DNA of 54,238 nt. It comes from a virus (lineage: Duplodnaviria; Heunggongvirae; Uroviricota; Caudoviricetes). Shown piece after piece: positions 27,121 through 27,663 of this stretch (its first letter is position 1; each line of letters opens with the position of its first letter). Position numbers and translations under genes: made by a program. The stretch lies in the IMG/VR virus record IMGVR_UViG_2541047842_000005, one strand, 5' to 3'. Below the pieces are notes generated by a model, which did not search any database, was not told where the DNA came from, and saw only the letters and a list, made by a program, of their open reading frames with translations.

Positions 27121-27663
27121 ATGGCTAAGGCTAAAGGCATTAAATTGCCTCAATTTAAGATCCCACTCTTTGAGCATACAACCGTTTTCTTTTGCCCGAC
27201 CCGCGAGATGTTCTATGAATTTTGCGAAAAGGCAGGAATTCCGATTGAACCTGATTTCGAGTTGGCTGGAGGATTAACGCTTACTTGCACTGGCGAGAAT
27301 GGTGGTAACTTCTACGTGATCGCAGTATTCAACAATGAGTTGGGAACGCTGGTCCATGAATGCGCCCACACTACATTCCACGTTTTAAGTGATGTAGGCG
27401 TCGTGGCTACCACGGATCCTACCCATCCGGCGAATGAGACTTACGCTTACATGGTAGGCCGTATCTTCGATGCGTTTTTCCCTATCCTAGCAGAATCAAA
27501 CGAAGCACAGGTTGCAGCAATGCAGGCGGCAGAAGTCGTCGATCAGGCGCTGGAACAGGCAGAACAGCCGAAGGAAGAAGAAAAGCCAGCGAAGAAAGGT
27601 AAACGTAAGCCGAAAGCAAAAGAAGCGCTTGTACCGCGTGTTATGAGTTTTAAACGAGGCTGA
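27121..27663 (+). CDS. hypothetical protein with HExxH zinc-metallopeptidase-like motif and Lys-rich C-terminus
   Basis: 180 aa; LVHECAHTTFH; C-terminal KEEEKPAKKGKRKPKAKE; SD AGGAG upstream. Confidence 0.45.
   Translation: MAKAKGIKLPQFKIPLFEHTTVFFCPTREMFYEFCEKAGIPIEPDFELAGGLTLTCTGENGGNFYVIAVFNNELGTLVHECAHTTFHVLSDVGVVATTDPTHPANETYAYMVGRIFDAFFPILAESNEAQVAAMQAAEVVDQALEQAEQPKEEEKPAKKGKRKPKAKEALVPRVMSFKRG

Follow-up and report, generated by a model that had tools for sequence, protein, structure and literature searches.

A gene between the lysis cassette and the packaging genes

The window analysed here is a 54,238-nucleotide stretch of tailed-virus DNA (Caudoviricetes; IMG/VR record IMGVR_UViG_2541047842_000005), and the subject of this study is one of its open reading frames (ORFs), at positions 27121-27663 on the + strand, referred to below as the target. 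The gene is complete and encodes a protein of 180 amino acids (aa) plus a stop codon, an orthologue of mEp021 gp49 and a member of the phage protein family PHROG 1365; as argued below, its core is probably a minimal zincin-type metallohydrolase. Translation starts at an ATG preceded by the Shine-Dalgarno sequence AGGAG (27107-27111), and none of the ORFs that overlap the target in other frames or on the opposite strand is longer than 45 aa. A previous sequence-only reading had described an LVHECAH peptide followed by an acidic and then a basic stretch, and all of these are present in the protein: LVHECAH corresponds to residues 77-83, and the HECAH within it to nucleotides 27355-27369. The gene is 100% identical to prophage genes of E. 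coli M1/5 and CB7286 and occurs in 25 of 5426 complete E. coli genomes, each of which labels it 'hypothetical protein'. The target is genuine and conserved, and belongs to an mEp021-like prophage of E. coli.

The region around the target is ~90% identical to the mEp021-like ('mEpimmI') temperate coliphages MagusPhagus, mEp010, mEp044, mEp554, mEp013 and mEp021. On its 5' side lie the genes for a holin (25691-25891), an endolysin (25892-26383) and Rz (26371-26841), the last with an embedded Rz1 (26561-26773). The previously reported gap after these spanin genes measures 279 nucleotides (nt; 26842-27120); it had been called non-coding, yet the MagusPhagus record holds two short coding sequences in the equivalent gap. 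On the 3' side, an array of nine micro-ORFs (27666-28404) follows directly, as had been described, with 2 nt between the stop codon of the target and the first unit. The array is succeeded by terS (28415-28930), terL (28905-30419) and a portal gene (from 30478). A secreted accessory enzyme of lysis was considered as a function for the target and rejected, the protein having neither a signal peptide nor a membrane segment.

Family membership, active-site signature and predicted fold

The target protein matched the hidden Markov model phrog_1365, a family of unknown function, with E = 2.4e-31; residues 1-131 aligned to positions 3-124 of the 127-position profile, and 127 of 128 aligned relatives matched the same model. 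The mEp021 orthologue gp49 is 92% identical overall and, in a tblastn comparison, 95% identical over residues 1-127. All close homologues come from E. coli prophages and go by the name 'hypothetical protein', while a metagenomic relative (P0118, 62% identity) bears the name 'PolyVal Metallopeptidase superfamily domain' in the nr database. A tblastn search of phage genomes placed homologues in 82 records, among them phage L Orf129, ST64T orf-129, ST104 ORF47 and epsilon34 gp70 at 44-46% identity, HK620 hkcC and an intact P22 ORF at 37% identity, and, as a weaker match, ORF49 of Ralstonia phage RSB3. hkcC has been described as a gene of the P22 'ant moron', located in the late operon and of unknown function (Villafane et al., PMC2629481). 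The P22 copy (L004 2501-2866; BK000583 13861-14226) is intact, has HECAH and ANETY motifs and lies between sieA and orf59a/mnt. It is unannotated in BK000583, where the sole underlying feature is the sieA promoter.

Searching 1.84 billion cluster representatives with a profile returned 228 matches at E <= 1e-3, nearly all of them standalone proteins of 105-140 aa. The median length of the relatives is 124.5 aa, equivalent to the core alone. When the family profile was used in a second, word-indexed search, nearly all matches again carried the name 'hypothetical protein', a single one was called 'SprT-like family protein', and precomputed Pfam domains were absent. The sequence around the HExxH motif had earlier been called otherwise unrecognised. 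This holds for Pfam, where there is no match; it does not hold in view of the PHROG 1365 match and the isolated nr labels 'PolyVal metallopeptidase' and 'SprT-like'.

Taken alone, the HExxH motif is weak evidence of function, because 1.1% of shuffles of the target protein contain one. Conservation was therefore counted over the target protein and 127 distant relatives (50%-identity cluster representatives; n = 128). G51, H79, E80 and H83 are invariant (128/128). E106 is present in 127 sequences, the sole exception having Asp, and Y110 in 125; N105 is shared by 77 and counts among the other strongly conserved positions, together with P15, F70, D71, T76, L77 and G93. Judged from the alignment, conservation of HExxH in every member along with E106 and Y110 is far beyond chance. 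In gluzincins such as thermolysin and the M1 peptidases, HExxH is followed by (N)E after 18-19 intervening residues, and zincins often also have a Tyr that assists catalysis. From the second His, the Glu lies 19-20 residues away in 112 of the 128 members and 23 away in the target, owing to a short insertion. HECAH (residues 79-83; 27355..27369, + strand) would thus supply the metal-binding His pair and the catalytic Glu, and N105-E106-T-Y-A-Y110 (27433..27450, + strand) the putative third metal ligand, E106, and a catalytic-site Tyr, Y110. A peptide deformylase-like site was ruled out, since the family has no invariant Cys.

AlphaFold2 models were built from the family alignment for the full-length protein and for a core construct of residues 1-130. 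The full-length model had a predicted local distance difference test score (pLDDT) of 89.8, and the core model a pLDDT of 93.8 and a predicted template modelling score of 0.88. The core domain (residues 1-124; 27121..27492, + strand) is predicted to adopt a minimal zincin-like fold. Its modelled strands span residues 11-13, 21-25, 51-58 and 63-69, and its helices residues 28-38, 44-48, 74-91 and 103-129; HExxH lies on helix 74-91, and E106 and Y110 on the first turns of helix 103-129, which extends to residue 148 in the full-length model. This order of elements agrees with the zincin core defined by Iyer et al. (2017; PMC5512222), in which a three-stranded sheet with a flanking helix is followed by the HExxH helix and a Glu helix. 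Invariance together with E106 and Y110, and the predicted placement on a helix, support the earlier assignment of HExxH as a zincin-type motif. That reading had also named what would speak against it, an HExxH in a non-catalytic context with no third ligand. This is not what was found, because a candidate for that ligand exists in E106, on the next helix and in 127 of 128 members, with the conserved Tyr one turn later.

Among the predicted viral structures of BFVD, 27 matched at E <= 1e-3, most of them uncharacterised phage proteins. The annotated neighbours were a 'SprT-like family protein' (E = 8.7e-5, template modelling (TM) score 0.68), a 'Metalloprotease' (3.4e-3) and a 'SprT-like' protein (7.4e-3), with a baculovirus 'SprT' (0.028) and a BepA-like M48 protease (0.046) among the weaker matches. 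Sequence searches of the PDB gave noise only, both with the single protein and with 13 close homologues. The 128-sequence profile likewise produced only sub-threshold matches there, and eight of these eight were zinc peptidases (including myroilysin, peptidyl-Lys metalloendopeptidase and BMP1). Weak matches to the Pfam SprT-like family (PF10263) were seen in 32 of the 128 members, the best of all 128 reaching only E = 1e-4.

These observations suggest that the target is probably a cytoplasmic member of PHROG 1365, a widespread family of tailed-phage accessory proteins, and that its ~120-aa core is probably a minimal zincin-type (gluzincin-like) metallohydrolase. Several results weigh against this assignment. 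The single target protein had no match in Pfam, where no family reached its gathering score. When 10 members were scanned singly, their SprT-like matches scored 12-15 bits against a gathering threshold of 25.6 and covered 16-33 residues, mostly ~18, around HExxH; an hhalign comparison of the family profile with the single E. coli SprT (YggI) sequence gave a probability of 4.6%. Foldseek searches of the PDB with both models returned nothing significant, with best E values of 0.1-0.2 and TM scores below 0.32. The zincin fold hence rests on topology, motif and annotated predicted structures, with no solved homologue. The meeting of H79, H83 and E106 at one site is a prediction, and late read-through expression of the gene, discussed below, is deduced from its position only. 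Finally, in the literature on mEp021 gp49, hkcC, Orf129 and phrog_1365, no experiment on any member was found. The top Foldseek matches, macrodomains and VOC dioxygenases, were discarded as noise.

The lack of a significant PDB fold match and of a Pfam family would also fit a protein that is no peptidase at all and instead binds metal in a structural or regulatory role, or that shares HExxH...E as a hydrolase of a non-protein substrate. The NCBIfam search gave only motif-level HExxH matches, which include the non-protease HExxH family TIGR04267 (13 members, best E = 0.015). Against this, E80 is as invariant as both His residues and the Tyr is nearly so, a pattern expected for catalysis and not for metal binding alone, and every sub-threshold sequence match in the PDB is a peptidase. 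We consider a non-peptidase quite improbable and retain the metallohydrolase assignment. By motif and by modelled topology, the protein is filed as zincin-like or gluzincin-like, outside the SprT-like, MPTase-PolyVal and M78 families; metal binding, peptidase activity and the function of the tail described below are all predicted properties.

Charged tail, genomic setting and the micro-ORF array

C-terminal to the core, the protein carries an acidic extension (residues 125-154; 27493..27582, + strand) with a net charge of -8, modelled up to residue 148 as a continuation of the Glu-bearing helix. It is followed by a Lys/Arg-rich tail (residues 155-180; 27583..27660, + strand) with a net charge of +10 and an isoelectric point of 11.8, in which 11 Lys or Arg residues stand against one Asp or Glu. 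The last 20 residues were modelled without regular secondary structure, at a pLDDT of ~66. The tail ends in a conserved peptide, VPRVMSFKRG, which reads VPRIARYKRG in the homologue P0121 (52% identity) and is also kept in P0118; the acidic helical segment, the Lys/Arg-rich segment and the terminal VPR(V/I)xx(F/Y)KRG are common to the mEp021-like group and these two relatives. Most family members end near the core, the median extension being 4.5 aa. In the E. coli variants P0113, P0114 and P0117, the whole tail is replaced by a different one that is still basic, and the distant members P0139, P0143, P0201, P0224, P0234, P0166, P0194 and P0210 have unrelated charged or basic tails. Because the terminal motif is kept and alternative and unrelated basic tails recur, tail basicity seems to have been selected repeatedly, and the tail of the mEp021-like lineage possibly binds nucleic acid. 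The acidic segment is also an indel hotspot (window 27493-27582 compared with L002 3379-3963), and mEp021 and several prophage variants have a 14-aa insertion, EKALDQAEKATDAA, within it. Variant P0116 is frameshifted.

The relatives are scattered over various slots, as is typical of an accessory gene, and tend to lie at the head of the packaging module. P0121 lies between a lysis cassette with an ASCH-domain gene and terS, and ST64T orf-129 two genes 5' of terS. P0128 is found between terS (Terminase_2) and a 489-aa ORF (L095 4493-6810); its coordinates overlap both neighbours, and the 489-aa ORF is probably terL. P0146 and P0149 are located a few genes 5' of an SU10-type portal gene. The tailed homologues P0139 and P0143 lie in a conserved cluster that also includes a pair of ParB_N genes and a gene for an ABC-like ATPase (L090 2085-6460; L089 2528-6486), followed by an overlapping gene of ~300 aa without a Pfam match. 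In the P0139 contig (L090), thioredoxin and Tad2-like (Thoeris anti-defence) genes lie just 5' of the homologue and the cluster lies a few genes 5' of terL; the P0143 contig stops short of any terminase gene. This cluster is a possible anti-defence or accessory island. Elsewhere, P22 and HK620 hkcC belong to immI, the ant moron, P0134 occupies an early region with ERF, YqaJ, SSB and a Rha/ANT antirepressor, P0132 adjoins a dNMP kinase gene, and RSB3 ORF49 lies 3' of maturase and lysozyme genes.

Tail and setting together bring to mind a protease that is tethered to or activated by DNA, like SPRTN, Wss1 or ArdC, and cleaves DNA-bound proteins on phage DNA near packaging; nucleoid proteins, proteins that are stalled or cross-linked, or host defence enzymes bound to DNA are conceivable substrates. 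Such a role is consistent with the charge of the tail and the independent recurrence of basic tails in distant members, with the repeated proximity to terminase genes, and with the position of one homologue directly 3' of a Tad2-like gene in a cluster with ParB_N and thioredoxin genes. In addition, SprT-like is the only recurrent Pfam signal and is the label of BFVD neighbours. The majority of members lack a tail, however, the predicted third ligand is Glu where SprT/WLM enzymes have His, the SprT-like similarity is confined to the HExxH helix, and DNA binding is itself putative. A DNA-tethered protease acting around packaging is the most attractive specific idea and has circumstantial support; as an explanation of the target we consider it doubtful. 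In an elaborated version that we rate as improbable, PHROG 1365 would be a structurally distinct minimal gluzincin clan, without neighbours among solved structures, of late proteases acting on DNA-associated proteins. In tailed members such as the target, the lysine tail, resembling histone H1, would tether the enzyme to DNA, and host nucleoid or defence proteins on the concatemer would be stripped off or destroyed at the onset of packaging.

Other settings recall the ImmA/IrrE/CapP-like proteases, by analogy with which the protein would act as an enzymatic antirepressor, cleaving the repressor of its own or of a competing prophage. P22 hkcC has mnt, arc and ant as neighbours in the immI ant moron, one homologue is located 3' of a Rha/ANT antirepressor gene, and another two genes 3' of an RHH_1 (Arc/Mnt-like) gene; two of 120 members also matched PADLOC capP. 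These capP matches, with E = 0.005 or weaker, are not significant, and Peptidase_M78 was detected in one of 13 close homologues at E = 0.099 and did not recur in the scan of 128 members. Both the window and ST64T, moreover, have the gene in the late region, far from immunity genes. An antirepressor of this kind is accordingly very unlikely. PADLOC gave nothing significant for the target, which is therefore no known defence component.

The name of P0118 in nr, the adjacent packaging genes and the basic tail raise a further alternative, in which the protein is packaged in the virion and injected as an effector, carried on the DNA by its tail and related to the MPTase domains of polyvalent proteins, which are delivered with the DNA (PMC5512222). 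MPTase-PolyVal was absent from the Pfam families matched by at least two of the 128 members, and the target family is standalone and not part of multidomain proteins. The GenBank record of mEp021 describes gp49 as 'hypothetical protein' and gp41, in contrast, as 'virion structural protein', and the two virion proteins that the mEp021 paper identified by mass spectrometry outside the main structural cluster are both encoded upstream of the lysis region. We regard an injected effector as extremely unlikely, and continue with a cytoplasmic metallohydrolase.

The 279-nt gap 5' of the target is nearly invariant among the window, MagusPhagus and mEp021, and folds far better than shuffled sequences (z = -4.98). 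It contains a 22-pair hairpin (27001..27053, + strand), whose position matches the terminator TERM_6 annotated in the gap in the mEp021 record, and a GC-rich 9-bp hairpin followed by a U-tract, UUAUAUUUUU (27064..27100, + strand), which resembles an intrinsic terminator between the lysis cassette and the target. In the mEp021 gap, a 58-nt insertion lies just 5' of the hairpins. According to the RNA fold, a further 9-bp hairpin (27100..27121, + strand) encloses the AGGAG and includes the A of the start codon among its paired bases; the stem change found in mEp021 is compatible with pairing, an A to G substitution that gives a G-U pair. The gap also contains a 31-codon ORF (MKRRFQCF...; 27026-27121), annotated as a coding sequence in the MagusPhagus record. 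Its ATG falls within the loop of the long hairpin, and it ends in a TGA that shares bases with the ATG of the target (TGATG). It may act as a coupling leader or may be an artefact of conserved RNA structure, the nucleotides being too conserved to tell. A promoter scan found sites no more often than in shuffled sequences and no sigma-70-like promoter 5' of the target on the + strand, and an Rfam scan of 25500-29500 found no credible RNA family.

The nine micro-ORFs on the 3' side have the appearance of real mini-genes; they are tightly packed and encode peptides of 20-34 aa, each essentially one hydrophobic segment with a 15-residue Kyte-Doolittle window above 2.1. The sequence-only reading had proposed a possible functional link between these peptides and the target protein, for example as a processing protease or regulator. 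Such a partnership could draw on the immediate adjacency with its stop-TT-ATG junction, which is maintained in mEp021 and MagusPhagus, and on the recurrence of that junction: ..GA(G/C)TGATTATG occurs at 27655, between target and micro-ORF 1, and again at 27747, between micro-ORFs 1 and 2, an indication that the genes are co-translated from a single operon. Co-transcription of target and array is indeed likely in the mEp021-like phages. The link is nonetheless unsupported at the family level, because P0121 (contig L086), the closest homologue outside the mEp phages, which has the same lysis-terminase synteny and the same tail, has terS 4 nt after its stop codon and no micro-ORFs. No array was found beside a homologue in the other contexts examined either (ST64T, P22, RSB3 and metagenomic contigs); adjacency to the array is specific to the mEp021-like group. 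The number of units also varies among close relatives, from ~5 in mEp021 to ~12 in MagusPhagus, while the target gene stays constant, and the array looks like a variable one of the cassette type. Moreover, the single hydrophobic segments offer no obvious leader to remove, and the enzyme itself lacks any feature that would direct it to the membrane or beyond. We therefore do not follow the proposed link and consider a dedicated micro-peptide protease or regulator most unlikely. Some units are identical across phages, for example MIDPLIILSACVAVWLAIMIFIES and MKWLDFFFLIVAIVLTMTALAQ.

Proposed function and likeness to known proteases

For the preferred reading of the target as a minimal zincin-type metallohydrolase, a mechanism can be proposed from zincin chemistry. 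H79, H83 and E106 would hold a Zn2+ ion, E80 would activate a water molecule, and Y110 would help to stabilise the transition state. The substrate backbone may bind along the edge of the small beta-sheet, with at least one protein target being cut in the infected cell. The gene would be read within an antiterminated late transcript, as suggested by the terminator-like hairpins upstream, the ribosome-binding site within a hairpin and the 2-nt distance to the next ORF. To this core, the mEp021-like lineage appears to have added ~55 residues, comprising the acidic helix and a flexible Lys/Arg-rich tail with its conserved terminal peptide. The tail is most likely an appendage for docking or for binding a polyanion (DNA or RNA), and may localise or regulate the enzyme. 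The target is a late-region accessory gene of the moron type, typically located near the packaging module.

If the family is an active protease, P22, HK620, L and epsilon34, which have been studied for decades, carry an overlooked late-operon enzyme that some P22 records leave unannotated. Its substrate could reveal a new mechanism of conflict between phage and host or between phages. Few standalone zincins would be smaller than this enzyme, which at ~105-125 aa could be a useful minimal scaffold. For the window, the label changes from 'hypothetical protein' to a predicted minimal zincin-like metallopeptidase of PHROG 1365, uncoupled from the micro-ORF array.

Within PHROG 1365, the P22-like members (37-46% identity to the target) share the core, the invariant residues and the accessory slot in the late operon. 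They consist of the bare core of 121-129 aa, whereas the target and its mEp021-like relatives add the acidic helix and the basic tail.

Beyond the family, SprT-like zincins (PF10263; SPRTN, Wss1) have a small zincin core with the HExxH helix after a small sheet, as predicted for the target. SPRTN combines its protease core with a basic region, and the basic tail and core of the target recall this arrangement. The third ligand of SprT/WLM enzymes is His; here it would be Glu, located 19-23 residues after HExxH, and the target contains neither a zinc ribbon nor a zinc-binding subdomain.

Classical gluzincins (thermolysin, M4; aminopeptidase N, M1) share with the family an HExxH...(N)E signature at 19-20 residues. 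The archaeal 'minigluzincins' proabylysin and projannalysin are the smallest known standalone zincins, and the family size of 105-125 aa resembles theirs. Neither the sequence nor the Foldseek comparison of the target shows detectable similarity to any solved gluzincin.

ImmA/IrrE/CapP proteins (Peptidase_M78) are likewise small, standalone HExxH proteases of phages and integrative and conjugative elements, and some homologues of the target lie near antirepressor or RHH genes. The target differs from them in having no significant M78 or capP match and, in the window, no adjacent repressor gene.

In the MPTase domains of the ArdC C-terminal domain and the P1 DdrB C-terminus (PMC5512222), the HExxH helix follows a three-stranded sheet and a helix, and the Glu is on the next helix, like in the model of the target. 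Those domains are parts of giant multidomain proteins, whereas members of the target family stand alone at ~120 aa and the mEp021 orthologue gp49 is not among the reported virion proteins of that phage.

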